Virus record (IMG/VR): IMGVR_UViG_2767802241_000002
Span: 77,281-141,280 of that record
From: a virus
Taxonomy: Duplodnaviria; Caudoviricetes
Length of the DNA stretch: 64,000 nucleotides
Direction: 5' to 3' (one strand)
The notes under the pieces were generated by a model that was given only the letters and a program-made list of their open reading frames with translations, did not search any database and was not told the origin of the DNA. Each line of letters starts with the position of its first letter. Position 1 is the stretch's first letter. Both the position numbers and the translations under genes were made by a program. Positions 2,516 through 54,578 of this stretch are shown here, piece after piece.

Positions 2516-3093
2516 ATGGAATTAAAGCAAGTTGATTATCCGCGTGGCAATGAAAAAGTAATTGCTGGTCATAAACTAGTGTTTGCGCCGTTACCATTGG
2601 GTGCCATTGAAAAATATCAAGATCAATTGAGTTCGGCGAGTGTACCGATCACGACAATTATTGATGTGGCACATATTTCCTTAAAGCGCAATTATCCTGA
2701 TATTCAGCGAGAATTTATTGCTGATGAAATTCTAGATATGGCAAACATGGAAGAGGTGTTGGGCTTAATCATCAATAGTTCAGGTCTAACTCATAACGGC
2801 GAAAAGACTGGTGAACAGTCGGGGGAATAGACTGGGAGGAGCTATACGCGCATTTGGTGCTCACAACGGGGAGAGATTTTGAATATATCCGCAGTGATTT
2901 TGATATTCCCCGTTTAAATGCATTAACGGCGTGCAATCGTAGAATACCTCCCGTGCCTATCAATATTCATCGCATTCGATTATTAATAGAGGCATTTATG
3001 GGCATTGAAGATGATGAACAAGATAATGTAGAAAATAATGATGATGACGATGAATTGTTAAATGATCTAAGAAACTTTCCGCAGGGTGGTTAA
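2516..3093 (+). CDS. Tail assembly chaperone pair (G 2516..2830; GT via -1 frameshift to 3093)
   Basis: G GGG GAA at 2821-2827, just before the stop. The -1 frame (GGIDWEELYAHLVLTT...) is continuous with ORF 2854..3093. Confidence 0.75.
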
Positions 3094-3177
3094 GGCTACT
3101 GGCGGGAAGTGGTATTCTTCAATAGATTATTTTATATTTTATTGTTATTTTATAAACCCTTATTTGAGGTGTTCATA

Positions 3178-3615
3178 ATGAAGAAATTAATACTTACACT
3201 TTTGGTGTTGAGTTTGGTTAGTGCTTGTAGCAAATCTCAAGAAGAAATTGATTTGGAAAAAAAATCTGAAACTGAAGCCCAATTAAAAGCTGAGAAAGAG
3301 GCGGATTTAAAAAAAGTAGAAGATGCCGTTAAGTATATGTTGAAGGATGGGGAATCAGCTAGATTTAGGAATGTTATTGGTAATTGTGGTGAGGTGAACT
3401 CTAAGAACTCATACGGAGCATATGCTGGCTTTTCAAGGTTCGTGTTTAAGCGAGATAATGGAAAAGTGGTATTTGATAATCCTGATAATCAATATTTTAA
3501 TGCTGTCGTAGCCTCGTTTTGCGATAAAGCATATTTGGACAAATTCCCAGTGGATGATTCGTCTAACAATACTAATTCTGCTGCTCCGATTGATGTTGCG
3601 CCTATAGATAATTAA
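3178..3615 (+). CDS. Lipoprotein (moron)
   Basis: MKKLILTLLVLSLVSA-C lipobox; 'CGEVNSKNSYGAYAGF' motif; AT-rich. Confidence 0.75.
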   Translation: MKKLILTLLVLSLVSACSKSQEEIDLEKKSETEAQLKAEKEADLKKVEDAVKYMLKDGESARFRNVIGNCGEVNSKNSYGAYAGFSRFVFKRDNGKVVFDNPDNQYFNAVVASFCDKAYLDKFPVDDSSNNTNSAAPIDVAPIDN

Positions 3616-3710
3616 TTTAGGGTCTGATAGTGGATTGCGACCCCATGCTCTCTGATAATTAAAATACCCCTGAAGATTAACTAACTCCGAGTTAGTACAA
3701 GTGTGACGAT

Positions 3711-4229
3711 ATGAAAAAATTGAAAGTATTAGGATTTTTAACTCTCTTCTTATCTGCATGTGCAACAACTCCCAAAGAGGCAACTTTTAACCTTCCTGAT
3801 GGTTGGCGATTACCAACAAGTGAGGATGCAATAGATGATTGGGCGAGATTTAATTCACCGAGTCGTGTTGAGGCAGATTTTAATGGTGATGGTAAAACTG
3901 ATAGAGCGCAAATATTATTAAAAAATAATTCCTCTACGGGATATCGGCTTATTGTCGATATTTCAGATGGAGATAATATAAAGCGATTTAACCTCGATCA
4001 AAATGATTCAATTTCTGCCCAAAGCATGGCAATAGAATTATTAGATCCATCTAATGAGGTATGGGATAGCGCTTGTGAAAAAGGTTATTGGGAATGCCAA
4101 CAGAATGAAATTCGGAAGTTTAAGATATCCAAGCCTAGTATCCAATTTTGCTACATAGAGTCAGCTTGCGTAATCTACATGTGGTCAGATCGTAATAAAA
4201 ACTTCACGAAGATTCCATTGTCTGATTAG
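3711..4229 (+). CDS. Lipoprotein (moron), candidate muralytic-enzyme inhibitor
   Basis: LFLSA-C lipobox; 'ADFNGDGKTD' Ca-binding-type motif; several Cys; immediately upstream of the tape measure. Confidence 0.7.
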   Translation: MKKLKVLGFLTLFLSACATTPKEATFNLPDGWRLPTSEDAIDDWARFNSPSRVEADFNGDGKTDRAQILLKNNSSTGYRLIVDISDGDNIKRFNLDQNDSISAQSMAIELLDPSNEVWDSACEKGYWECQQNEIRKFKISKPSIQFCYIESACVIYMWSDRNKNFTKIPLSD

Positions 4230-4279
4230 TTGCTTAGGTAAGACTTAAATATTTTAAGAATACTCAAAAAGATTTTATC

Positions 4280-4302
4280 ACCGCCATCACGGCGGTTTTT
4301 TT
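4280..4302 (+). terminator. Intrinsic terminator closing the lipoprotein moron
   Basis: ACCGCCATCACGGCGGTTTTTTT. Confidence 0.7.
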
Positions 4303-4319
4303 ATGCCTGCGAGGTAGTT

Positions 4320-7300
4320 ATGGCGAATGGTAATAAGGTAGAAGTAAGTATTGGTGCTAACACTTCCGAGCTTAAAACTGGCATGAAAGAGTCAGGTGAG
4401 GTTGTTAGTAAAACTGTAAAAGAAATGGAGAATGCTGGTAAAAGCCTGAAAATTAATATTGATACATCTATTATTGAAAAAAGTTTTACAGATATGTCTC
4501 GTAATGTGCAGGGCAATATGCAAAAACTTAGCACGAATATTAGTGATTCATTTAATAAAAGCTTTGCTTCGATTTCCAGCTCATTTAAATCTGTGAGTAC
4601 GCTTTTAGCTGGTACCCTAACTGTTAGTAATGTCATTGATATGGCAGATAGCTATGGGCAAATGGGTGCGCAGATTCGTAAAGCTTCTACTGATATGGTT
4701 GAATACAATAAAGTCCAAGATCATTTACTAGAAACAGCAAATACAACATATCGCTCACTTGAAGAAGCACAACAGGTTTACCTTGATGTGGGTGGTGCTT
4801 TAAAGGCGTTTGGATCCACCACAGAAGAAGCTTTGCGTATTACTGACAGCTTATCGTTTAGTTTTACCCATAACGCAACAGCATCAGATAAAGCGGCATC
4901 AGCAACCAACGCTTTTATGAAAAGTATTTATAGCAATAAGGTTTCTGGTGATGCCTTTGTCACTATGCTATCAGCTATACCAAGCATTGTTGATGATTTA
5001 TCTACAAGCATGGGGGAATCTAAAGATAAAATTCTTGAAATGGGGAATGCAGGCAAGATCACAGGCAACCAGCTCAAGAAAGCTTTTAATGATAGTCGCG
5101 AGGCAAATGAGGGCTTTGCTAATGATATGGAAAACAGTGTTAATGATGGCTTGCGCGTACTAAAGACTGAATTGACCGTATTTATTGGTAAGGCCAATGA
5201 GGCGCATGCAGTTACCGGAAAAATAGCTGCCGTGCTTGTTGCTCTAGGTAAAAATATTAGTACTGTTGTTGCGGGAGTCAGTGCTGTAGCTGCAGTGTTG
5301 GCGACTAAATATATTACACAGATGGCACTATCGATCAAGACGACAGTTGCTGCTACTATCGAAAATATTAGAAATCAGGCGAGTTTGGCCGGTTTATCCG
5401 CCCAAGCAACGTTAACAACACGTAGTCTAGCTGTATTACGTGGTGCAATGGCGGTGCTCGGCGGTCCTGCTGGCTTAGGTATGTTGGCGGTGCAAGGTAT
5501 TGCAGCTGGCGCTGCATTCTTATATCTGAAAAAAAGTAGCGATCAAGTAGAACCATCGCTTGAAAGTCAGGGTAAATCTGTTGCTGAGCTAAAGGCAGAA
5601 TATGATCGCTTAGATGCCGCCCAACAGCGCGTACTGACGCGTCAGACCAAGGCTGATCTTACAACTGCAGAAGAAGGTTTTAAAAAGCAAGAGATTGCTT
5701 TATTGGGCTTAGTACGCGCCGTGATCAACCATTCTGATGCTACATATGAGGATAAGAAAAAGGCCAAAGAACTATATGACCAGTATCTTGATGGCAAGAT
5801 CAAAGCTGATCAGCTTGCAACCGGTATCAATAATCTTAAGTCGGTCGAAGAAAAGCATAAATCTACTATTGATGAAAAATCAAAATCTTTGACTAAAGAG
5901 CAAGAAGCAGTCTTTAAAGCATTGGATGTACTGAAGTCATATAGCAATGTGACGCGTCAATCAACGATTGATAATAAAGCACATACCAATTCAGTCAATG
6001 AAAAAGCTAACGCTTATGCAAATTTAACTGAGAAACAGCGTCAATATGTAGATGGTGTTAATAAGACAGCTGGGCGTGAACGTTATGTACAGACTAATAT
6101 GGCAGTTACTGGCATATCGCGTGAGCGTGCAGAACATCGTGCTGATGCGCGTGAAGCTGCTGGTATGGGATTTACCAATAAAGATGGTGTGATGCCAAAG
6201 GAGCTTCTGGATGCCGAGCAAGCCTCATGGGACCTTAAGCAGCAGGAAAAAGCACGGCAAGAGGCGGAAAAAAAAGCCTTAGATGCAAAAAAGAAAAGTG
6301 AGGCGGCAAATAATAAGCAGACCGGTAATCGTCTAGTTGGTCTTGTTGGGAGTACTGGGCGTAGCACGGGTAACCATCTTCATTTGCAATACCCCAAAGG
6401 ATCAGGGAAAGGCGGTGTTACTGCACAAGACATGGCTTTGTTACAGTTAGGGGGGCAGACGCTTAAACCAAGTATGTCTAAACACCCATACGGTGAAGAC
6501 AGGGGGAGCCGAGGAAAGCACGGGGGCTGGGATTTTTCTGCACCAGCTGGTACAGAAATTACGACGAATGCCGCCGTGAAAGATGTACAAAAAATGGTGT
6601 CTGAAACAGGTGGTTATACTTCAAGGGTATTTTTTGAGAATGGTGTGGTGCTTGATTTAATGCATCAGATCCCAGCAATGATGCAAAAAGTTAAAGGTGG
6701 TGCTAGTAAAGGGAGTAATACCTCATCAAGTAAAGATAGCTATCAAGCATTCGTTGATGCTGAAAAAAACAAGCTAAACCTACAGCACAAATACGCTTCA
6801 CAGAGAAAACAGGTCGAGCTTGATTTAGAGGAGGAATTGGCGGCGATTCGAGAGTCAACTTTAAGCAAAAGCGAAAAAGAAGACTTTGCTGTAAAAGCTA
6901 AAAAAGAAGCTGCCGACAAGATCAAGGCGATCGAGCTGGAGGAGTTGGAAAATACTCAAGATATGTCTGAACAGATTATTGAGGGTAAAGAGCTACTGGC
7001 ACAGCGGATCTACGAGCTGGAAATGGCACAGACTCAGGCTTTATTTGAAGCTAAGCAAATCTCCAATTCGCAGAGACTGCAGCTTGAGAAGCAGCTGGAA
7101 GATAAGCTTTATCAAACTAAGCGGAATGCCTTGGAAGATCGCTTATCACTGGAAATGAGCAAGAGTGCTTTTAGTGGTAAGAGTGACGGCGTACATAATG
7201 CCAATGAAAGCATAGCGGCTCTAGATAATGAAAAGACCATTTCTGACACCTTAATGCCTGGTCTGATTAATGATGCTCAAATGAAAGATTTTGAAGATAA

Positions 7301-8069
7301 ATTTGGTGGCTTAACCAATCGGATCTCTGGTCTTTGGGATAAAGGCATTCAAGCCATGATGAATGGTACCTTGACTTGGAGCAATGCGACTAACGCCGTT
7401 TTAACAGATATGGCTGGATTCTTTCTTCAGAAGATGGTGACTGAACCATTGCGCGTCTATATGACAGGTTTAGCTCAACGTATGGCGATAAAGCTAGGTT
7501 TTATTAAAACTGAAACGGCGGCTGAAGTTGGTGGGCAAGCAGCTCAAACAACTGCAGTAGTTGCAGGTGAAGGAGTTAAAACGGCAGCTACGGCGACTGG
7601 TGTATTGGCACGTTTGGCGCTTAAGGCTGGCGAAGCAATTAAATCGATCATGATGTATGCATGGGAAGCAATGGCTGGGGCATTCAAAGCGATGGTATCA
7701 ATCCCATATATTGGGCCATTTCTCGCCGTAGGTGCTGGCGCTGCAGCATTAGCATTGGTTGGTGGTTTAGCCGGTAAAATTAAGTCTGCTCGCGGTGGTT
7801 ATGATATTCCTGCGGGTGTGAATCCAGTAACCCAATTGCATGAAGAAGAAATGGTGTTGCCCAAACAACATGCCAACACCATTCGTGCTTTAGGGCGATC
7901 AATGCGTAATGGCGGAATGGAACAACCTGCAATGGCTGGTGATGGTGGTGGTATGTCTACGATTAATATTCAAGCATGGGATTCTAGCGATATTCGCCGT
8001 TTTATGCGTAAGCATGGGCGTGAGTTGGCTGGTGGTCTAAAGGGGTATGGTCGTAACTTTGGTAAATGA
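4320..8069 (+). CDS. Tape measure protein with internal permuted M23 peptidase domain
   Basis: 1249 aa, Ala/Lys-rich and helical with an N-terminal tape-measure domain. Contains GSTGRSTGNHLH and HGGWDF motifs at ~6348-6670. Confidence 0.9.
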   Translation: MANGNKVEVSIGANTSELKTGMKESGEVVSKTVKEMENAGKSLKINIDTSIIEKSFTDMSRNVQGNMQKLSTNISDSFNKSFASISSSFKSVSTLLAGTLTVSNVIDMADSYGQMGAQIRKASTDMVEYNKVQDHLLETANTTYRSLEEAQQVYLDVGGALKAFGSTTEEALRITDSLSFSFTHNATASDKAASATNAFMKSIYSNKVSGDAFVTMLSAIPSIVDDLSTSMGESKDKILEMGNAGKITGNQLKKAFNDSREANEGFANDMENSVNDGLRVLKTELTVFIGKANEAHAVTGKIAAVLVALGKNISTVVAGVSAVAAVLATKYITQMALSIKTTVAATIENIRNQASLAGLSAQATLTTRSLAVLRGAMAVLGGPAGLGMLAVQGIAAGAAFLYLKKSSDQVEPSLESQGKSVAELKAEYDRLDAAQQRVLTRQTKADLTTAEEGFKKQEIALLGLVRAVINHSDATYEDKKKAKELYDQYLDGKIKADQLATGINNLKSVEEKHKSTIDEKSKSLTKEQEAVFKALDVLKSYSNVTRQSTIDNKAHTNSVNEKANAYANLTEKQRQYVDGVNKTAGRERYVQTNMAVTGISRERAEHRADAREAAGMGFTNKDGVMPKELLDAEQASWDLKQQEKARQEAEKKALDAKKKSEAANNKQTGNRLVGLVGSTGRSTGNHLHLQYPKGSGKGGVTAQDMALLQLGGQTLKPSMSKHPYGEDRGSRGKHGGWDFSAPAGTEITTNAAVKDVQKMVSETGGYTSRVFFENGVVLDLMHQIPAMMQKVKGGASKGSNTSSSKDSYQAFVDAEKNKLNLQHKYASQRKQVELDLEEELAAIRESTLSKSEKEDFAVKAKKEAADKIKAIELEELENTQDMSEQIIEGKELLAQRIYELEMAQTQALFEAKQISNSQRLQLEKQLEDKLYQTKRNALEDRLSLEMSKSAFSGKSDGVHNANESIAALDNEKTISDTLMPGLINDAQMKDFEDKFGGLTNRISGLWDKGIQAMMNGTLTWSNATNAVLTDMAGFFLQKMVTEPLRVYMTGLAQRMAIKLGFIKTETAAEVGGQAAQTTAVVAGEGVKTAATATGVLARLALKAGEAIKSIMMYAWEAMAGAFKAMVSIPYIGPFLAVGAGAAALALVGGLAGKIKSARGGYDIPAGVNPVTQLHEEEMVLPKQHANTIRALGRSMRNGGMEQPAMAGDGGGMSTINIQAWDSSDIRRFMRKHGRELAGGLKGYGRNFGK

Positions 8070-8079
8070 GGAGTGAGAT

Positions 8080-8730
8080 GTGTCTGATGTATTGTTTCCT
8101 GAATTGCCGGGGTTGGAATGGGACTTAACCAAAGCCCCAAGCTTTAATACTAAAATCATGACCTCGATCAATGGTCGTGAACTTAGAGCAAGTTATCAGG
8201 CCATCCCTAAATATGACATTACTTTGTCCTTTGGGTTCCTGCGGGAGTCCAAAGGGCGAACTGAGCTGCAGCAACTTGAAGGCTTCTTTTTAGAACGCCG
8301 TGGTGCTTTTGATTCATTCTTGCTGAAGATGCCAGATGATCATCAATTTGACTGTACCTATATTGGCGATGGCTACACAAGCATTTTTCAGCTTTATAAA
8401 AACATGCATACGGCGCAAATCCCATTGAGTCATAGCCAGTCTTTTTCACGACCAGTAAACCCATTGATGTGGAATAAGAGACCAGTGAAATCGATGTGGG
8501 ATGGTAATGCTCAAAAGCCAATGTGGAATAAAGCCACGGCGGGTGTCACCAAAAATGGTCAGGTCATATTGTCTGAGCCGCTAGAAGATGGACAAACGAT
8601 GTCGATCAGCGGCACTTATTACTATCGCTGCCGCTTTAAAGATGATGAGCAGCAATATACCAATTTCATGTATAAGCTCTGGAAAGCCAATAAGGTGCAA
8701 TTGGTAGGATCATTGGGGAATAAGCTATGA
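8080..8730 (+). CDS. DUF2460-like distal tail protein
   Basis: 'P.FNTKI.TS.NGRE.R...FF.ERRG.FDSF' pattern; follows the tape measure. Confidence 0.75.
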   Translation: MSDVLFPELPGLEWDLTKAPSFNTKIMTSINGRELRASYQAIPKYDITLSFGFLRESKGRTELQQLEGFFLERRGAFDSFLLKMPDDHQFDCTYIGDGYTSIFQLYKNMHTAQIPLSHSQSFSRPVNPLMWNKRPVKSMWDGNAQKPMWNKATAGVTKNGQVILSEPLEDGQTMSISGTYYYRCRFKDDEQQYTNFMYKLWKANKVQLVGSLGNKL

Positions 8731-9584
8731 GAAAAGCCTCAGCAAAACTTATTGCATTATTAGATGCTGATCAGTTCTTGATGGCTGATCTATACACGAT
8801 TACGACCATTCAGGGTGATGTTTATCGTTATACCAATTTTGATACACATTTAACGGTGAGTGGTTTGCTCTATCGCGCAGATGGTCCAATCATTAGCCGT
8901 GAAGGCATATCACTGTCATTAGGTGTGGAAGTAGACTCGCTATCTATTTCGATTCAAGTTACCGGTGAAGAATCATTAGATCAAATTCGCATGGTACAGG
9001 CATTTCATAACGGCGTATTGGATGGTGCGCGCTTCAAGTTGGAGCGTGTATTTTTAAATTATATGAATCCCGGTGATACCAGCGCCGGAACTATTAAGTT
9101 ATTTGAGGGGCGCATCATTGAGCCTGAATTTGATCGTAATAGTATTGATGCGCATGTGGCATCGGATACCGATGTTTTAAATGTGCAGATGCCGCGTAAT
9201 CTTTACCAGCCAAGCTGCTTAAACACCTTATTTGACGGTGGCTGTGGATTATTGCGATCAGAATACGCCGTGAATGCAACGCTTGAGACTGGTAGTACGG
9301 AATATCGATTGCTATGTCAGCTAAGTCAGCCGCAAGGTTGGTTTACGCAAGGTGTTGTTGAATTTACCCAAGGTGTAAATAAAGGTCTTAAACGTACAGT
9401 GCGACTACATGAGTCGGGCGCATTGTTATTGACTCTACCCTTGCTAGATATGCCTGCGGTGGGTGAGCTTATTAAGGTTTATCCAGGATGTGATAAGCGG
9501 CTTGATACCTGCATGAATCGATTTAACAACCGTGATCATTTTCGTGGGCAACCTTTTATACCAGTACCGGAGACCGCAGTTTAA
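8727..9584 (+). CDS. DUF2163/BR0599-like tail hub protein
   Basis: 'YQPSC...FD.GCG', 'PGCDKR..TC..RFNN..HFRG.PFIP'. Confidence 0.85.
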   Translation: MRKASAKLIALLDADQFLMADLYTITTIQGDVYRYTNFDTHLTVSGLLYRADGPIISREGISLSLGVEVDSLSISIQVTGEESLDQIRMVQAFHNGVLDGARFKLERVFLNYMNPGDTSAGTIKLFEGRIIEPEFDRNSIDAHVASDTDVLNVQMPRNLYQPSCLNTLFDGGCGLLRSEYAVNATLETGSTEYRLLCQLSQPQGWFTQGVVEFTQGVNKGLKRTVRLHESGALLLTLPLLDMPAVGELIKVYPGCDKRLDTCMNRFNNRDHFRGQPFIPVPETAV

Positions 9585-10006
9585 TGAGAAACCTAGATGC
9601 AGTAGCTGAGGCTATGACTTGGCTGGGTACGCCGTATCACCATCAAGGGCGGGTGAAAGGTGTTGGTGTGGATTGCGGAACTTTAATTTGTGAAGTGTAT
9701 GAGCGTGTTGGGCTAATGGATCATTTAGATCCGCGCCCATATCCACCAGACTGGCATATGCATCAACTTGGTCAACGCTATCTTGAGCATGTGAAAAGTG
9801 TCTGCTTTGAAGTTACTGAGCCGCAGCCGGGTGATATTGTTTTATACCATTTTGGCAAGTGCATTAGCCACGGCGCAATTGTTGTTGAATGGCCCACGAT
9901 CATTCATTCGTATATCCATCAAGGTGTCATTCTCCAAGATGGTACCAAAGGAAGTTTAGCCCGGCGAATAGCTGGGTTTTTTCGTATGAAGAGGCTAAAA
10001 GAATAA
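9584..10006 (+). CDS. Tail NlpC/P60 cell-wall peptidase
   Basis: 'WLGTPYHHQG..KGVGVDC...H(GAI)'. Confidence 0.9.
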   Translation: MRNLDAVAEAMTWLGTPYHHQGRVKGVGVDCGTLICEVYERVGLMDHLDPRPYPPDWHMHQLGQRYLEHVKSVCFEVTEPQPGDIVLYHFGKCISHGAIVVEWPTIIHSYIHQGVILQDGTKGSLARRIAGFFRMKRLKE

Positions 10007-47755: not shown

Positions 47756-48202
47756 ATGGGAATGGGCCATAATCCAAAAACATTAACATCCGCTAATGCT
47801 GTGGTGATGATTCGCTGCAAAGGTGTTTATGACAGCTTTACTCGATTACAGGGATTTCAGGCAGACAATGCTTGGGCATTTGGTGAGGCGACTATCGGTG
47901 AAACACGCATGGGTGTGGATGGACAGCAATCTGGTGGTTATACACCACATGAAACGCCGTGGACTTTGTACTTAGAGGCAAATAGTCCATCTGTTGCTGT
48001 GATGGAAAATATCCGCAAGGATTTTAACCAAAATATGGAAACACGTTTGATTGATATCGTAGTTGAGATTCCATCTATTGGCAGTCGTCATGAAGCATCT
48101 GGTTTCTGGGTGAATCTCACTGGTGGTCCATCAGGGCAGAAAATTTTAGCGGGCAGTCAATATAACTTCCGCCTGGTAGATAACGGCGGAGAACAGATGT
48201 AA
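47756..48202 (+). CDS. Tail tube protein
   Basis: 'TSANA', 'MGVDG..S.G', 'L.A.SPS'. Confidence 0.8.
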   Translation: MGMGHNPKTLTSANAVVMIRCKGVYDSFTRLQGFQADNAWAFGEATIGETRMGVDGQQSGGYTPHETPWTLYLEANSPSVAVMENIRKDFNQNMETRLIDIVVEIPSIGSRHEASGFWVNLTGGPSGQKILAGSQYNFRLVDNGGEQM

Positions 48203-48815
48203 TGGCACGTAAAGAAAAAGTTGTAAAAATTGAAAAAGGTCGTGATGTAGGTAAATCATTTCTAATCACTGAAATGCCAATTATGAAGGCAGATCAATGG
48301 GCAATGCGCGCATTATTCGCCTTAGCCAAAGGCGGTACTGATATCGATGGCATTGATCCAAGCGGTGGAATGCTTGAGATGGCGAAAGTCGCTACGTCTG
48401 CAATCAAGGGACTAAATAGTGATGAAGGCATTGAGCTGCTCAATGAATTACTTGAATGCATCAAGATTGTGCCGAGTGGTGGTGTATCCCGCGATGTGCT
48501 CTGGGATGATGATGTTGAAGATATTTCAACGTTATTTGTGCTGCGAAAAGAAGCCTTAATGTTGCATATCGATTTTTTAACTTCAGGCAGTTCCCAAGAT
48601 TCGAGCAACTAAAAGCTGGACTGCCAATCCGTGACGATGTCCTTGCTAAAACCATCAATGTAAGCACCACAGCCAGTCAAGCTTTACAGACTGGCATGGT
48701 GACTTATGTTGAATTAGATAGCGTGTTAGGGCTTGAGGATGTACTCAATGTAATTGAAGTGCATCAAGTTGCTGAATTTAACAAACAAATTATTAGAGGT
48801 GCTGCTCATGAGTAA
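48202..48815 (+). CDS. Tail assembly chaperone (48202..48612) with -1 frameshift extension to 48815
   Basis: T TTT TTA at 48573-79; the -1 frame is open for ~80 codons (...ELDSVLGLEDVLNVIEV...) and overlaps the TMP start. Confidence 0.75.
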
Positions 48816-51804
48816 TATTGTAGAGGCTCTTTTTGTTCAGCTTGGTTTAGACACCAATGGTTATACAGAAGATGCAAAAAAGGCTGTAGATCAAAATAAT
48901 AAACTTGAAAAGTCTCTCGATAAAGTTGAGCAGCAATCTATTACCGCAGGAAAGGCACTGGATGGCTTAAAAGGTGTTTTGTCAGCAGTCACTAAAACAG
49001 TGGCAGGAATGGCCGCCGTGATTGTGGCAGGTACTGGTCTTGCTAAACTCGCCCAAGAGGCACGCCAAGCCAATGATGAACTGTATTTCTTAGAAAAAAA
49101 CCTCAATATGTCGGCTCAATCTATATCTGCATGGCGTGGTGCTGCTGATGCGATGGGTGGTTCAGCTGAGGGAATGACGGCGACATTAAAAGGTCTTTCT
49201 CGTTCAATCAACGATTTTGTTGTGATGGGCGATGCCTCAATGCTTCCATACTTCAATGCCATGGGCGTGAGTATGGTTGATGCGAATGGTAAAGCGAGAG
49301 ATATGAACGATGTACTGCTTGATATGTCTGAATCATTATCTGGTATGAACCAGCAACAAGCCTATAGTCTTGCCTCTAGCATGGGTTTTGATGAGGGTAC
49401 AATTAACATGCTGTTGCAAGGTCGAGATGCGTTAAAGGAAACGCTGGATCTGCAAAATAGCATGTACAGTTCCAGCAAAGAAGATTTAGAGAACAGCCGC
49501 GAGCTAACGAAGCAACAAGCCATCATGAATGCGCACTGGAATTCCATGAAGCTGATGATTGGTAATGCTTTGACGCCAGTTTTAACAAAGCTTGTAAAAC
49601 TGTTTAATCAAATGTTCGAGTTTTTTCAGAAGCATCAAAATACCATTAAGCATGTCTTTGAAGGGATTGCTGTTGTCATTGGCGCGGTATTAATTCCTGT
49701 TTTATATGCCGCAGCTACAGCGGCGTGGGCTTTGATGGCGCCGTTCATGCCTATGATTCTACTAGTCGGTGCATTGGGTGCTGCATTTATCTTGTTATAC
49801 GACGACTATAAAACTTGGGCTGAAGGTGGTGAGTCGCTTTTAGACTGGGGTAAGTTTAAAAAGTTCTTTACGACGACTGTTGAAACCGTTGATAAACTCA
49901 AAAAAGGTTTCCATGATCTTAAAAATGGCTATCAAGACTGGGTTGCGAGCGCGACCAGTAAATCAACAGAATGGTTACGTTTGAAGGGCTTTATTGATGA
50001 AAATGGTTTGTCGGTTGATTCATTGATTAAGGGGTTTAAAAATCTTGCTAGAGAAATGTTAGATAAAGTTATCCCAACTTTGAAAGGCTATGCGTCGATC
50101 ATCACCAAAATCTTTAGCGGTGATTTTAAAGGCGCGATGGAAGAAGCTGGGCAGATGATGGAAAACTTTGCTGAGCGTGTTGATTCCACATTTAACGCTG
50201 TGAAAGATAAGGTACTTGAGGTTACGGACACGATTGCGGGTAACGACCCTAATGCAGAAAATTCGCTTACATCTACGGTCGGTAAATACAACCTTGATAC
50301 TAAATCAGCTGTTTCTGAGGCAAGAAAAGTCCAGTTGCCTAATCCAAAACTACCAGAATTGGTGAGTGGTGGAAGCTCGCCAGTGCTTGAAAAAGCATCT
50401 AAAGAAACAGTTGCAGCTGCTGATTATGCAGTTGCCCATGCGCTAAAAGCGAGTGAAGGAAAATGCGCAAAATATGTGAATGATTCTTTACGCTCACAAG
50501 GCTTTAAAATCTGGGGGCACGGTAAAGAAGTTGCGGGCAACTTAATTAAAAGTAATCAAGGGTTTAAAAAAGTCGAATACAACAAAGACTATGTGCCACA
50601 AATCGGGGATGTAATGTCGATGGGCGCTTATAGTCCTGCGCACAAAGCGCAACAAATCAAAAAGCATAAAGTTGAGGCGGGTCATGTTGCTATTTACACA
50701 GAAAAAGGTTGGGTGTCAGATTTTATGCAGGGGGAAAAGTACGGAAATACAGGCGCTGGCGGGAAGGGTTATTTCGATGCAATCAAAGCTGGCACATTAA
50801 AGCCGACAATTGCGCGCCGTTCGACTCCCGTTGCTAAACCTGCTTCAAACGGCGGATTTAAAATGCCTAGCTTGATTAGTGGTGCACATGCTGCAACGCC
50901 GCCAAATACTCATCAGAACATGGCTCTTGAAGCAGTCGCATTACATCTTAAAACGTTGCAAATGATGGGTGGGAATAATAGTGGGAGGGATTTCAATGAT
51001 TTGATGTCTGCGGCGGCAGATAAGTACAACATAAAAGATGTAAGAGAGCGTGCTGCGTTTATGGCTATTGTCGGGCATGAAACGGGGGATGGTAAAAAGC
51101 TATCAGAAGATATGCGATATTCGTATAAGGGGTGGAAAAATATTTCACCACGCCAAGAAAATGTAAGAAATTGGTTAAAAGCACATACTGAAGCAGATTT
51201 CAAAAAATTATCCGCAACAGACAAGCTTAACATTATGTATGAAGGAATGAACGGTAACAAGCCTGGTGAAGGTGCTAAGTTCAAGGGGCGTGGAGCAATT
51301 CAGTTGACTGGGCGTGCTAACTATCAAGCATATGCAAATTATGCGAATCGACAAGATATTATGAGTAACCCCGATCTTCTTGCAACAGATAAGCATCTAG
51401 CTGCTGACTCTGCTGCGTGGTATTGGAGTGTTTATAGAAAATCTGCATCCAAAGCTGCTAAAGAAGGTGATATTAAAAAAGCTAGAAAACTTGTGAACGG
51501 GGATGAAATTGGTATGGATGATGTTTTACGCCGTTACCAAGAATTGTTAAAAAATACAAATACAAAGAATTCATCACTAGTCAATAATGATGCACTATCT
51601 AGACTACAATCTTTTCAAAATACTGGTAACATGCTGAATAATAAGCAATCACCGACTATGAATAATAATCAAAAAAAGATTGATGTCAATATTGGTGATA
51701 TTAGCGTTATGACAGCATCGAATACAGTCACTGGAACTGTCCAAGACGGTTTTGCGGCTGCCAAAGACGGTGTTAATCAGTTAATGACGGGGATGATTGT
51801 GTGA
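48808..51804 (+). CDS. Tape measure protein with Tae3-like amidase and GH19 domains
   Basis: Helical N-terminal part; CAKYV...GHVAIY...WVSDF.Q at ~50410-50820; HETG...KGRGAIQLTGRANY at ~50990-51545. Confidence 0.9.
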   Translation: MSNIVEALFVQLGLDTNGYTEDAKKAVDQNNKLEKSLDKVEQQSITAGKALDGLKGVLSAVTKTVAGMAAVIVAGTGLAKLAQEARQANDELYFLEKNLNMSAQSISAWRGAADAMGGSAEGMTATLKGLSRSINDFVVMGDASMLPYFNAMGVSMVDANGKARDMNDVLLDMSESLSGMNQQQAYSLASSMGFDEGTINMLLQGRDALKETLDLQNSMYSSSKEDLENSRELTKQQAIMNAHWNSMKLMIGNALTPVLTKLVKLFNQMFEFFQKHQNTIKHVFEGIAVVIGAVLIPVLYAAATAAWALMAPFMPMILLVGALGAAFILLYDDYKTWAEGGESLLDWGKFKKFFTTTVETVDKLKKGFHDLKNGYQDWVASATSKSTEWLRLKGFIDENGLSVDSLIKGFKNLAREMLDKVIPTLKGYASIITKIFSGDFKGAMEEAGQMMENFAERVDSTFNAVKDKVLEVTDTIAGNDPNAENSLTSTVGKYNLDTKSAVSEARKVQLPNPKLPELVSGGSSPVLEKASKETVAAADYAVAHALKASEGKCAKYVNDSLRSQGFKIWGHGKEVAGNLIKSNQGFKKVEYNKDYVPQIGDVMSMGAYSPAHKAQQIKKHKVEAGHVAIYTEKGWVSDFMQGEKYGNTGAGGKGYFDAIKAGTLKPTIARRSTPVAKPASNGGFKMPSLISGAHAATPPNTHQNMALEAVALHLKTLQMMGGNNSGRDFNDLMSAAADKYNIKDVRERAAFMAIVGHETGDGKKLSEDMRYSYKGWKNISPRQENVRNWLKAHTEADFKKLSATDKLNIMYEGMNGNKPGEGAKFKGRGAIQLTGRANYQAYANYANRQDIMSNPDLLATDKHLAADSAAWYWSVYRKSASKAAKEGDIKKARKLVNGDEIGMDDVLRRYQELLKNTNTKNSSLVNNDALSRLQSFQNTGNMLNNKQSPTMNNNQKKIDVNIGDISVMTASNTVTGTVQDGFAAAKDGVNQLMTGMIV

Positions 51805-52220
51805 TGAAAAAAATACTTGGGCTTTGTTTTTTACTTGCTTCATTTGGTATTGAAGCTGCCAGCAACGTGGTTTTTCTTTGTGATGTTAAAGGCGGCAAGC
51901 AAGTAAAAATTACTAAAATTGGTGATTATTATCAGTACAGCTTCGGAAAGCCGAATAATCCAGAACTCGTTTTTCGAAATAGCAAAGCCCAAGTTATTAA
52001 ACAATCGCCGCGGTGGGATGGCATGGGAAGCCACATGTGGGCAGGGATGCTTTTTAAAAACGGTGCTTATGAATATCATGTGACAGACAGTATTGATCGA
52101 ATGAATGAAGAGCATGCAGTTCATTCGGGTGTTACTGTGTCGAAAGGTGATACCTATTTAACATACGTACAGTGTGTTAATGAGGCTCAAGCGAAATGGG
52201 ATGATGAGTTTATGATTTAA
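51804..52220 (+). CDS. Secreted protein, candidate muramidase immunity
   Basis: Signal peptide, two Cys in the mature chain, 'YSFGK...PEL', 'FKNG.Y.Y'; start overlaps the TMP stop. Confidence 0.7.
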   Translation: MKKILGLCFLLASFGIEAASNVVFLCDVKGGKQVKITKIGDYYQYSFGKPNNPELVFRNSKAQVIKQSPRWDGMGSHMWAGMLFKNGAYEYHVTDSIDRMNEEHAVHSGVTVSKGDTYLTYVQCVNEAQAKWDDEFMI

Positions 52221-52295
52221 TTAATGTATCCAAAATATAAAAATAGATAAATATTTAGATGTTTTATTAACGGGTTAACGGGGAACAACAATTTT

Positions 52296-52793
52296 ATGAA
52301 ATTTGCTCTTTTAAAGAAGTGGCAGGTCATATGCTTATTTGCAATTTCTTGCTCAATGTCTTCATTTGCAAATGCAGATGACGCTGGGCCAATTCGAACA
52401 ATTCAAGCTCTATATAGCCATTCAATGGAAATGAATAAACATTTTCGAGATTACGATAGCAATAACTTATTAGCGAAATTTGCTACTAAAGATTTAAAAC
52501 AACTCTTTATCGCTGATGACCAACTCATGGAACGGACAGGCGAGCTAGGCTGTATAGAAATTGATTTAATGTGGCTGACAAATGGTGATGCTGAGGGTGC
52601 TGAGTTATTTTTAGAACAAATTGATGATCGTCATGTAGCTGTTGTAATTGGCCAAACGGAGGACATGGAAAGTCGTTCTTTAATCTATCAGATGGACTGT
52701 GATGGCGCTGCTTGTAAAATTAATGATTTGATTATTGGCGGTGAATTTTCATTTAAACAAGGTTTGGCTGAATGTTTAAGTGAGGCTGAGTAA
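52296..52793 (+). CDS. Secreted DUF3828/YbjP-like protein, candidate amidase immunity
   Basis: Signal peptide; 'I.ALY...L..F....L..L...D......G...CI..D......D...C....CKI.D'. Confidence 0.6.
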   Translation: MKFALLKKWQVICLFAISCSMSSFANADDAGPIRTIQALYSHSMEMNKHFRDYDSNNLLAKFATKDLKQLFIADDQLMERTGELGCIEIDLMWLTNGDAEGAELFLEQIDDRHVAVVIGQTEDMESRSLIYQMDCDGAACKINDLIIGGEFSFKQGLAECLSEAE

Positions 52794-52864
52794 GGGCTTT
52801 AAGCCACCACGATAATAGATAATTTAAAAGTGATATTGAAACATTTTAATAACGGGGTGAAGTT

Positions 52865-53157
52865 TTGAAAAATTTCTTTTTTTTTGATGCGGTACTTTCG
52901 ACAAAGATAATCACACTGATCTACTGGGTCATGCTTTTATTTGGATTTTAGGGATTGGATTGATCGTTGTTGGTAATCAAGCCTCTGGACATTTGCAGTT
53001 TAGCGGTGGTCTTGGGATTATTGCTGGAATTGCTGTGATTATTTTCGGCACTCTGATTGCTCGACTATGGGCTGAATTCATGGTTGTAATATTTAAGATT
53101 CAGCAGAATACACGGCGTACTGCTGAGGCGTTAGAGCGACGGAATAATATCCTTTAA
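52865..53157 (+). pseudogene. DUF4282-like membrane protein, frameshift near 52947
   Basis: MKNFFFFDAVLSTKIITLIYW... joined to ...ARLWAEFMVVIFKI..N. Confidence 0.6.
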
Positions 53158-53230
53158 AACAAAAACCGCCTTCGGGTGGTTTTTTACAATGAAAATTAGT
53201 ATCTTGATTAAAATTCAAGGAATTTTGAAT

Positions 53231-53575
53231 ATGAATAAGCTTTTAGTGACTACTTTGATTTTAATTATCTCAGGGTTATCTCATGCTAATCAGTCAAGAT
53301 ATGTTTTAAGTGATGATAAACAGTTATGCGAAGCAGCTAGTTATTTTGCAGCAGTAGCACTTGAGGGGCATTACCGTGGTGAAGATAAGAAAATTCTTCT
53401 TGATTACATAAATGAAAGTCAAGAGATACCTAACATAAAGAAAACTTACTTCAAAATGCTTTTAAATGAAGCCTACAACAAGCCTATTTATTCATCTGAA
53501 GAAGAAATGAAGAAGGCGCTTATGAAGTTTCATGATGATACGTCTAAGGATTGTATGAAGAAAGCATTAAGATAG
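53231..53575 (+). CDS. Secreted hypothetical protein (moron)
   Basis: Signal peptide and two Cys; bracketed by CCTTCGGG terminators at 53163-85 and 53596-616. Confidence 0.65.
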   Translation: MNKLLVTTLILIISGLSHANQSRYVLSDDKQLCEAASYFAAVALEGHYRGEDKKILLDYINESQEIPNIKKTYFKMLLNEAYNKPIYSSEEEMKKALMKFHDDTSKDCMKKALR

Positions 53576-53744
53576 TCTGATATCAAGTTATACACACCAC
53601 CTTCGGGTGGTTTTTTAATACCCAAAGAAAAAACCCCGATGTTTGCCGCACCGGGGTTTTTGTATATCAACCCAAAAAGAGGATGGATAAAATTATATGT
53701 TTGATAAAGATAACAAATTTTCGTTTAAGTTCCTAGGAGTATTT

Positions 53745-53873
53745 ATGGAAGCCATAAACTTGAAGCCCAATAGTTTTGTAAAAATCTTTTGGCACCTTGC
53801 ATTGATTGCTGTGTTTATTATGTTTTCGCGCTTTGCAATTCAGGTTGCAAGTCATTATATGGGGCTGGTCTGA
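53745..53873 (+). CDS. 42-aa single-TM peptide, type I toxin-like
   Basis: AGGAG RBS; MEAINLKPNSFVKIFWHLALIAVFIMFSRFAIQVASHYMGLV*; upstream hairpin at 53628-53661. Confidence 0.5.
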   Translation: MEAINLKPNSFVKIFWHLALIAVFIMFSRFAIQVASHYMGLV

Positions 53874-53948
53874 ACATATGAAATATTTAAATTAAAACCG
53901 ACCTAATTCAAGGTCGGTTTTTTAATGCCTAAAATTTGGAGATTAACC

Positions 53949-54578
53949 ATGATGGAAGGAATGCCCGACATACCTGATTTTAAGGGGCTAGCCACCTCTG
54001 GAACTGATGCGGGGATTAGCCTTGGTGGTGCTGCGCTAATCAATACTGTTCTAGGAAATTATTGGGGAATATTTAACGAGTACGGCGTACCTATTCTTTT
54101 AGCTGATAACGTTGTCTCGTTAAACCATTCTGAATCATTTCAAATTTGTAATGCACCGGTCGAAAAAGGCGGATTTGTTAGCTATAACAAAGTAAAGGAG
54201 CCTTTTAAGGCAACGGTACAATTGAGTAAAGGCAGCGGAGGAACCTTGGCGCGCGGCGCTTTTCTTGCTCAGATTGACATGCTTGCAAACAGTACACTCA
54301 AATTTAATATCGTTACGCCTGATTACGTTTATACCAACGCTACTATAGTGCGGCATAGTAATGCTCGATCCGCAGAGGACGGCGCACAACTCATTAAGGT
54401 TAACATTGATCTTGAGGAGGTTATGGAGGCTAAAGTTGATTATTCATTTGAGGAAGTTAAAAAACCTGACGATGCCAAAACAAAGGACGGCGGAGAGCGT
54501 CAGCCACAGGATGCCAGCGGCAATGCATCGATACTGAAAAAAGCAGCAGATGCGGTTAAAGGTATTTTTGGAAATTAG
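53949..54578 (+). CDS. Baseplate/tube initiator (Dit-like) protein
   Basis: 'PVE.G.F.SYNKV..P'. Confidence 0.7.
   Translation: MMEGMPDIPDFKGLATSGTDAGISLGGAALINTVLGNYWGIFNEYGVPILLADNVVSLNHSESFQICNAPVEKGGFVSYNKVKEPFKATVQLSKGSGGTLARGAFLAQIDMLANSTLKFNIVTPDYVYTNATIVRHSNARSAEDGAQLIKVNIDLEEVMEAKVDYSFEEVKKPDDAKTKDGGERQPQDASGNASILKKAADAVKGIFGN

Follow-up and report, generated by a model that had tools for sequence, protein, structure and literature searches.

Candidate exported partner proteins encoded beside a tape measure protein with GH19-type and Tae3-like amidase domains in an Obolenskvirus-related prophage

The phage T4 protein Spackle (gp61.3) is described as a periplasmic protein that binds and inhibits the tail lysozyme gp5 and gives superinfection exclusion (PMC7677548), and the Ltp-type protein of the S. 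thermophilus phage TP-J34 is presented as a prophage-encoded, surface-exposed lipoprotein with a part in superinfection exclusion (PMC3952083). Among type VI secretion systems (T6SS), the amidase Tae3 of Ralstonia pickettii, with the catalytic dyad C23/H81, is found together with Tai3 (chains B and C) in PDB entry 4HZ9 (PMC11796386), Tai3 is reported to inhibit by inserting a loop into the active-site cleft (PMC6099711), and Tai17 is named as the cognate immunity protein of Tae17 (PMC11461821). Here we describe a locus in a 64,000-nucleotide stretch of viral DNA (Caudoviricetes; IMG/VR record IMGVR_UViG_2767802241_000002, positions 77,281 to 141,280), referred to below as the window, in which the gene for a tape measure protein (TMP) bearing a Tae3-like Cys/His amidase domain and a GH19-type (lysozyme/chitinase-like) domain is followed by two small genes, open reading frames (ORFs) A and B, whose apparently exported products may be partners of these enzymes.

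An earlier note on this locus, made from the DNA letters alone, had read it as a polymorphic enzyme–immunity system built into a phage tail with one inhibitor for each enzyme, and our analysis partly supports this. The part concerning ORF A was supported, as this member of an unnamed family lies directly behind a GH19-type enzyme in related phage records and co-varies with it, which provides good comparative support for a functional link between the two. The part concerning ORF B was not, as relatives with the same TMP amidase have no ORF B and covariation between the two failed, leaving a fold-level resemblance to Tai3. Our full-text literature search returned no description of such an enzyme–immunity layout for tape measures.

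The TMP ORF extends from 48754 to 51804 and probably starts at the ATG at 48808 (MSNIVE...), where residue 4 of the phage Scipio TMP falls in an alignment. The two proteins share 44% identity over amino acids (aa) 3–457 and 43% over aa 946–992, and these ends (the first 457 and last ~50 aa) are common to Obolenskvirus TMPs, with the middle of the protein forming a variable enzyme cassette. Both of the enzyme domains proposed earlier are present in it. The amidase domain has the motifs GKCAKYV, GHVAIY and WVSDF, with the WxSDFxQ motif in common with Tae3, and when searched alone against the PDB with phmmer it matched 4HZ9 chain A (E 0.0069) with C23 and H81 of Tae3 aligned with C553 and H626. 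It shares 32% identity with the amidase of a T6SS effector of the Tae17-like type and 59–61% with the amidases of the L155–L157 TMPs, and no Pfam or NCBIfam model matches it. The domain is internal to a phage TMP and shows no linkage to VgrG, Hcp or PAAR; it is a Tae3-like enzyme by sequence, with predicted peptidoglycan amidase activity, and not a T6SS effector. The Pfam match of the GH19-type domain scored 43.4 bits against a curated cut-off of 25.5 and covers profile positions 103–158 only, and the whole domain aligns with the GH19-type endolysin 4ok7. In this alignment HETG and SED of the TMP are placed against HESG and QEN of 4ok7, positions which we take to be the catalytic Glu sites of GH19.

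The cassette is swappable and was seen in four states among relatives: neither amidase nor GH19, with a weak SLT hint only (the Scipio and WUPSU TMPs, 676–696 aa); the same amidase with a different second domain (the L155–L157 TMPs, ~902–916 aa), where an AAYNWG motif recognised by eye suggests a transglycosylase; GH19 only, 52% identical to that of the window (L055/L120); and amidase plus GH19 in the window TMP. It should be noted that the provirus TMP of L055 (2646–4816) lies in two overlapping frames (2646–3191 and 3125–4816), reflecting a frameshift or an assembly error. Tae3-like amidases were also found outside TMPs. An 860-aa glycine-rich virion-type protein (L154, 3573–6990) carries an amidase 57% identical to that of the window plus a lysozyme-like segment (by eye), and its end overlaps a lipobox gene (LLLSAC) which falls outside the ORF B family. 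Homologs ~37% identical to the TMP domain occur as short ORFs of ~150–230 aa (L023–L051) in 94 of 246 other Acinetobacter species genomes, in chromosomal, non-phage contexts, and the L025 copy is followed by a small exported-looking gene. Scans of viral contigs with the single amidase or GH19 domain protein gave nothing, and alignment-based scans did return loci.

The evidence linking ORF A with GH19 comes from gene order. An ORF A homolog (35–36% identical) comes immediately after a close relative of the window GH19 domain (44–52% identical) in all phage records in which we found such a relative (4/4: the window, L055/L120, L054 and GenBank prophage BK070131.1), and this holds for two carriers of the enzyme, the TMP in two Acinetobacter prophages and a 378–385-aa head-module protein in the other two records. 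In viral contig L054 the terminase, portal and Mu-F-like genes come first, then the gene for a 385-aa protein with a GH19 domain at its C-terminus (47% identity to that of the window), the ORF A homolog (35%) and the capsid gene, and the layout of BK070131.1 is the same. A search of 50,697 phage records with ORF A gave a single match, in BK070131.1, located directly after the best of 104 GH19 matches. ORF A is absent record-wide from the five TMP relatives without GH19 (G247–G249, Scipio and WUPSU), and this joint presence (4/4) and joint absence (5/5) must be read as small samples in which the records represent three lineages and not nine independent events. Two further cases are found in G086 and G194, where one search profile (E ≤ 0.001) found a single GH19-type gene per genome, located 1.4–2.1 kb upstream of an ORF A homolog and encoding a 442- or 433-aa protein with a C-terminal part matching the same GH19-type endolysins.

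We note that these last genes sit in chromosomal clusters (L083, 5968–9503, in G086 and L084 in G194) of closely spaced, partly overlapping and co-oriented genes, encoding a 131-aa protein, the 442-aa GH19-type protein, exported proteins of 179 and 237 aa and the ORF A homolog, with no VgrG nearby; the cluster looks like an effector with an immunity array. No ORF A was seen at GH19 endolysin-like loci, nor at the one distant locus returned by a metagenome scan with the GH19 alignment, and a genome-contig scan with ORF A gave five loci, with GH19 in none of them.

Translation of ORF A could begin at GTG 51801 or at ATG 51804, preceded by GGGGA ~10 nt upstream, and with the TMP stop codon at 51802–51804 this results in a TGATG overlap (in L055 the ORF A start likewise overlaps the TMP stop, as ATGA). 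The overlap of this first gene with the TMP gene, and the Cys residues and leaders which the earlier note gives to both small genes, were also seen here, the leaders by eye. The ORF A leader is hydrophobic, C27 and C125 are invariant across 13 sequences, and the AlphaFold2 model is a nine-strand antiparallel barrel (pLDDT 82). We take ORF A to be a genuine gene, with homologs in 17 of the 246 other Acinetobacter species genomes and also in Neisseriaceae and Pasteurellaceae. Searches of Pfam, NCBIfam, PADLOC and PDB sequences gave no match, Foldseek on the model gave nothing clear (TM ~0.3), ESM Atlas returned only unnamed 'secreted protein' clusters, and a word-indexed search over 5.8 billion proteins gave back no proteins but those of the window itself. 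A wide VIA structure search returned common small barrels, the best with Z 8.6 (an unrelated protein), followed by a chain of the T6SS BtaiB complex (6.7) and PliC/PhiA (5.3–5.7); BtaiB and PliC/PhiA were dropped as sources of a family name, as these values are at the level common to small barrels.

Stand-alone ORF A copies were found in the chromosomes of Eikenella longinqua and a Neisseriaceae metagenome-assembled genome (L068, 4941–5399, and L067, 5001–5408), where they are single-gene islands between housekeeping genes and are 87% and 76% identical to the phage-borne L054/L055 copies. Both islands are low in GC (45.5% vs ~60% in one and 31.6% vs ~40% in the other). These may be captured protective genes, and their single-gene, low-GC nature fits the idea of a stand-alone protective gene.

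ORF B, likewise a genuine gene, has an ATG start with its own Shine–Dalgarno-like GGGGAA upstream and a hydrophobic leader, MKFALLKKWQVICLFAISCSMSSFA, followed by NA (by eye), which is missing from the database copy as this was called from a later Met. C135, C140 and C160 are nearly invariant in 91 sequences, a profile search of 1.8 billion representatives returned 287 relatives, and the family is present in 39 of the 246 other Acinetobacter genomes. The earlier suggestion that this gene is of the DUF3828/Tai3-like type holds for fold and profile though not by Pfam. The model (pLDDT 89, with the mature part >94) has the DUF3828 fold, with Foldseek placing 3kzt first (probability 1.0) and giving 0.96 for Tai3, and VIA placing Tai3 first (4hz9_C, Z 10.7, root-mean-square deviation 2.8 Å, 111/122 residues), tied with YbjP (10.6) and 3kzt (9.9) and followed by MlaC (~9) and generic NTF2-like folds (≤7). 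The family profile gives a borderline match to 3kzt (E 0.0013), an uncharacterised PDB protein which we presume to belong to DUF3828. NCBIfam, PADLOC and PDB sequence searches gave no family for ORF B. The family has a conserved QD and a nearly invariant D97; Tai3 is referred to as the best-characterised DUF3828 protein, with a QDX motif that takes part in inhibiting Tae3 (10.1101/2025.03.19.644130). The family profile also matches (52 bits) the lipoprotein gene found in G085 directly after the VgrG-linked, 588-aa Tae17-like effector whose amidase was compared above. A second ORF B-family domain is present in the window's own genome, inside a 309-aa ORF located outside the window (G000:C1:3383799-3384206).

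The positions of these genes and of their neighbours are listed in Table 1.

Table 1. Features of the tape measure region and their coordinates in the window.
Feature	Coordinates	Strand	Basis or remark
Tail assembly chaperone	48202..48612	+	phrog_1932 5e-42; upstream of TMP, same position in Scipio
Tape measure protein (TMP), 998 aa	48808..51804	+	PHROG tape-measure families match N-terminal half; phrog_3824 4.7e-163
Tae3-like Cys/His amidase domain, ~aa 535-668	50410..50811	+	C553 at 50464-50466, H626 at 50683-50685
GH19-type (lysozyme/chitinase-like) domain, ~aa 729-916	50992..51555	+	Pfam PF00182 4.5e-11; PDB 4ok7 1.7e-20
ORF A, predicted exported 138-139 aa beta-barrel protein, candidate GH19 partner/inhibitor	51804..52220	+	Start overlaps TMP stop; follows GH19 relative in L055, L054, BK070131.1
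ORF B, predicted exported 165-aa DUF3828/Tai3-fold protein	52296..52793	+	Gene call, model fold, profile
DUF4282 membrane-protein gene, looks frameshifted	52866..53157	+	Pfam PF14110 2.1e-08, profile positions 31-84 of 86 only
ORF D, predicted exported helical protein, 128 aa	53189..53575	+	phrog_2315 8.1e-10
ORF E, 58-aa membrane peptide	53697..53873	+	Homolog in same slot of L120
Dit-like tail tube initiator	53925..54578	+	Pfam PF21821 1.8e-09; counterparts in Scipio, L120; tail operon resumes

The window lies in an Acinetobacter genome. From ~43 to 60 kb it holds the structural module of a prophage of myovirus type which is related to Obolenskvirus phages (nucleotide identity 65–72%, patchy), and 82 of the 83 records of phage DNA related to the window are Acinetobacter phages. 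The gene order follows that of Scipio, with sheath, tube, tail assembly chaperone, TMP, Dit-like initiator, hub, spike, gpW and gpJ. In Scipio and WUPSU (Obolenskvirus) the Dit-like gene starts within 7 nt of the TMP end, and it also comes directly after the TMP in L155–L157, the gap in all of these being a few to ~60 nt. The small genes of the window do interrupt the tail operon, as had been claimed, with a gap of 2.1 kb (51801–53924) containing five small genes, and there is no such block in the lytic Scipio and WUPSU. The parallel layout which the earlier note saw in prophage A was not found, since the DUF2460 and hub genes come straight after its TMP (window 4320–8069), and small exported genes are lacking there. 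The prophage A tail module (window 4320–10006) has a sub-threshold Peptidase_M23 match in the TMP (E 0.0016) and a separate NlpC/P60 tail gene at 9584–10006, again with no adjoining small exported genes. In these comparisons duplicate loci were counted once (L056 is the L054 contig, L120 the L055 contig, and L066 the place of L002/L072), and loci L074, L080, L081 and L087 end at contig edges.

The block between the TMP and Dit-like genes has the anatomy of a moron or cargo block. In the DUF4282 gene, an N-terminal piece (52866–52949, MKNFFFFDAV...) stops at TAG and the remainder is in another frame (52960–53157). Four terminator-like hairpins, one called by a scan and three by eye, are located after the DUF4282 gene (~53163–53186), after ORF D (53594–53617 and ~53631–53665) and after ORF E (~53896–53925). 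Two of the four have nearly identical stems (CCGCCTTCGGGTGG and CCACCTTCGGGTGG), and the last ends at the Dit-like start codon. A weak promoter-like site is present at 51614–51642, and such sites are fewer in the region than in shuffled sequence. The same slot in the provirus L055/L120 contains homologs of ORF A, ORF E and ORF B and other cargo before the Dit gene. Some of the cargo genes travel as a group outside phages as well, since an A. calcoaceticus chromosomal island has an ORF D homolog (L066, 5401–5781; E 8e-6) immediately behind an ORF A homolog. In a short contig with no hydrolase match (L080, G051:C5), ORF A-family (483–920) and ORF B-family (8089–8571) genes are 7 kb apart, and they may belong to an island made up of protective genes that stand alone.

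We regard it as an even call whether this slot holds exported partner proteins of the TMP wall hydrolases that give superinfection exclusion of the Spackle kind, and the most likely role would be a Spackle-like protection of lysogens. The domains, folds, gene order and co-occurrence on which we base this were observed; export, binding, inhibition, the timing of expression and the phenotype are what we infer from them. The TMP would carry the wall hydrolases into the periplasm when the virion injects, and ORF A and ORF B, once exported, would sit in the periplasm of the lysogen or infected cell. ORF A is most likely a disulfide-bonded periplasmic beta-barrel which would bind the cleft of the GH19-type domain and inhibit it, and ORF B, judging from its model, most likely a periplasmic Tai3-fold protein which would neutralise Tae3-type amidases as Tai3 does, with a loop entering the active-site cleft. 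The target of ORF B could be the window TMP amidase, the amidase of related phages, or Tae17-type T6SS effectors of rival Acinetobacter. Incoming virions of the same enzyme type would be disarmed, with wall damage limited and DNA entry blocked, and the outcome would be superinfection exclusion of the T4 Spackle–gp5 kind built like a T6SS effector–immunity pair.

A number of observations weigh against this proposal. For ORF A, 19 of 24 loci lack a GH19 gene within 5 kb, ORF A is the third and not the first exported gene after the enzyme in G086 and G194, and it was not found near any of the other long GH19-type proteins of Acinetobacter (0/33, in a survey of the genus covering ORFs of ≥430 aa). 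Its fold is a common small barrel with its best match to an unrelated protein, and translational coupling to a late gene is, by itself, ill-suited to expression in a lysogen. For ORF B, no family gene was found in the fetched flanks of the viral loci with a Tae3-like amidase (0/32), including L155–L157, where the same amidase is present and the TMP is followed by the Dit-like gene, and there is none anywhere in the records of these close relatives, among them G248, a provirus with integrase that is 100% complete, and G249, which is 97% complete. Conversely, L055, a prophage with GH19 only and no amidase, does carry a homolog of ORF B (27% identical), and only one of the 29 other ORF B-family loci of the genus has an amidase within 1.5 kb (30 of 50 places were fetched, with 1.5-kb flanks). 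Among these loci, synteny with a Tae3-type amidase was seen in the window and G085 only. There is also no match to Pfam DUF3828 (PF12883) for ORF B (E ≤ 10) or seven homologs (E ≤ 1), and the window protein reads NGD at the QD position of the family.

Three wider ideas were abandoned along the way: that ORF A is a general partner of Acinetobacter GH19 effectors (0/33), that ORF B is an obligatory partner of phage Tae3-like amidases (0/32), and that partners occur only in temperate relatives, as the amidase-only G248 is a provirus with an integrase. A Tai3-fold gene beside a Tae3-like domain is insufficient to call a cognate pair. The amidase relatives without ORF B indicate that an amidase-bearing TMP needs no ORF B in cis; ORF B is perhaps an optional protective gene, aimed at amidase-bearing phages or at T6SS attack of the Tae17 type.

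One alternative, which we consider unlikely though worth attention, is that ORF A and ORF B are ordinary morons, that is, exported proteins which landed in a permissive slot behind the TMP and have functions of another kind (envelope, adhesion or stress), whose likeness to immunity proteins is that of a shared fold only. This is consistent with the make-up of the block, in which five unrelated small genes have their own terminator-like hairpins and one is apparently frameshifted, and with both families mostly being found away from hydrolases (19/24 loci for ORF A and 28/29 other loci for ORF B). DUF3828-fold proteins are known in other roles, such as YbjP with TolC, and in G091 two prophage-like loci have ORF B homologs flanked by what seem, by eye, to be tail-fibre and lysis genes. 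Coincidental cargo does not, however, readily explain why ORF A follows GH19 behind two different carrier proteins in each of the four phage records and is absent from all five TMP relatives without GH19, and it would be hard for the sole ORF A match in the large phage search to adjoin the best GH19 match by chance.

Rather less probable, in our view, is that the two proteins serve mainly as prophage-borne orphan immunity proteins, cross-protecting the lysogen when rival Acinetobacter attack with T6SS peptidoglycan hydrolases, with the TMP enzymes being only relatives of the true targets. The ORF B family does include a gene in immunity position after a Tae17-like effector, Tai17 is the immunity protein named for Tae17, and GH19/COG3179 and CHAP domains are reported for the A. 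baumannii T6SS effectors Tce9 and Tae8 (PMC6833914). The presence of an ORF B homolog in a prophage whose TMP has no amidase (L055) would also suit such a role, as would the window's genome, G000, having no other Tae3-like amidase at E ≤ 0.001. Set against this, no ORF A- or ORF B-family gene lies close to any of the 33 long GH19-type proteins of the genus, the association of ORF A is with GH19 proteins of phages and not with VgrG loci, and ORF B and the Tai17-position protein of G085 are not detectably alike in a pairwise comparison (E 0.15). That the small proteins instead protect the producing cell or aid assembly while a hydrophobic, enzyme-bearing TMP is made late seems very improbable, for although ORF A is coupled to the TMP in the window and L055, and would therefore be made with the late tail proteins, and the TMP has long hydrophobic segments (aa ~290–340, with Pfam membrane-protein hints), the self-protection during assembly suggested earlier is not borne out for the amidase by G248, a complete provirus with the same TMP amidase and neither an ORF B- nor an ORF A-family gene (the dispensability of ORF B in cis itself argues against self-protection), and a TMP without signal peptide (by eye) would normally not meet exported-looking partners before lysis.

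Returning to the proposal of exported partners, if ORF A does inhibit GH19 this would provide a protein inhibitor class for GH19-type lysins, and we know of no such class. The Spackle principle would then have a second example, independent of the first and found in temperate phages, with a gene arrangement like that of T6SS effector–immunity pairs, and superinfection exclusion between Acinetobacter prophages would be shaped by TMP enzyme cassettes together with their antidotes. This would have a bearing on the host range of phages in Acinetobacter, for which phage therapy is being pursued, and host-chromosome copies of ORF A would then be a simple anti-phage defence acting at wall penetration. 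More tentatively, ORF A may found a family of periplasmic GH19-muramidase inhibitors, being moved by phages with the enzyme domain, as an enzyme-plus-antidote unit, from one virion protein to another (tape measure or head-module protein) and captured by bacteria on its own as a chromosomal island that resists such phages, and together with ORF B may make the slot between TMP and Dit-like genes a polymorphic 'entry-enzyme immunity' locus deciding which phages, and perhaps T6SS attackers, breach the lysogen wall; we think this possible, and doubtful as a whole.

Compared with known systems, ORF A resembles the PliC/MliC inhibitors in that these are small periplasmic beta-barrels which inhibit lysozymes, and PliC/PhiA chains are among its fold matches. 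PliC/MliC inhibitors target c-type lysozymes and have no sequence relation to ORF A, and the Z values obtained are within small-barrel noise. Ltp is, by description, also a prophage-encoded exclusion protein, unlike the present case in belonging to a Gram-positive system. Its target is the TMP of the incoming phage, rather than a TMP-borne enzyme domain.

The T6SS pairs are closer. A. baumannii Tae17/Tai17, linked to VgrG17, is from the same genus and Tae17 is described as a two-enzyme wall hydrolase with a Tae3-like amidase (PMC11796386), and the G085 gene that follows the Tae17-like effector, which we equate with Tai17 by position only, belongs to the ORF B family by profile. The second enzyme of Tae17 is, however, a lytic transglycosylase and not GH19, and Tae17 is T6SS cargo. 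Tae3–Tai3 of R. pickettii compares well at the level of the enzyme, whose catalytic residues align with those of the window amidase, and of the partner, as Tai3 is the best match of the ORF B model and both partners are small and exported, by prediction in the case of ORF B. It differs in that delivery in the window relies on a phage tail, the candidate partner comes second among the downstream genes, and phage relatives with the same amidase have no such partner. In addition, ORF B and Tai3 have a sequence likeness of ~12%, Pfam does not place ORF B in DUF3828, and the Q of the QD motif is replaced in the window.

The closest comparison is with T4 Spackle–gp5. The window enzymes are GH19-type and Tae3-like and are carried by a TMP, unlike the lysozyme of the T4 tail spike, ORF A is a predicted all-beta barrel and ORF B of DUF3828 type (neither fold search listed Spackle), and the partner genes, whose binding is predicted, lie directly beside the enzyme gene in a temperate phage. 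The logic we propose is nevertheless the same, with a phage-encoded periplasmic inhibitor of the phage's own tail-borne wall enzyme: by gene order the candidate partners are encoded by the enzyme-carrying phage, and by their leaders they are predicted to be exported. Exclusion of this Spackle-like kind is already known, and the new part would be the T6SS-like effector–immunity architecture around the enzymes of a tape measure protein.

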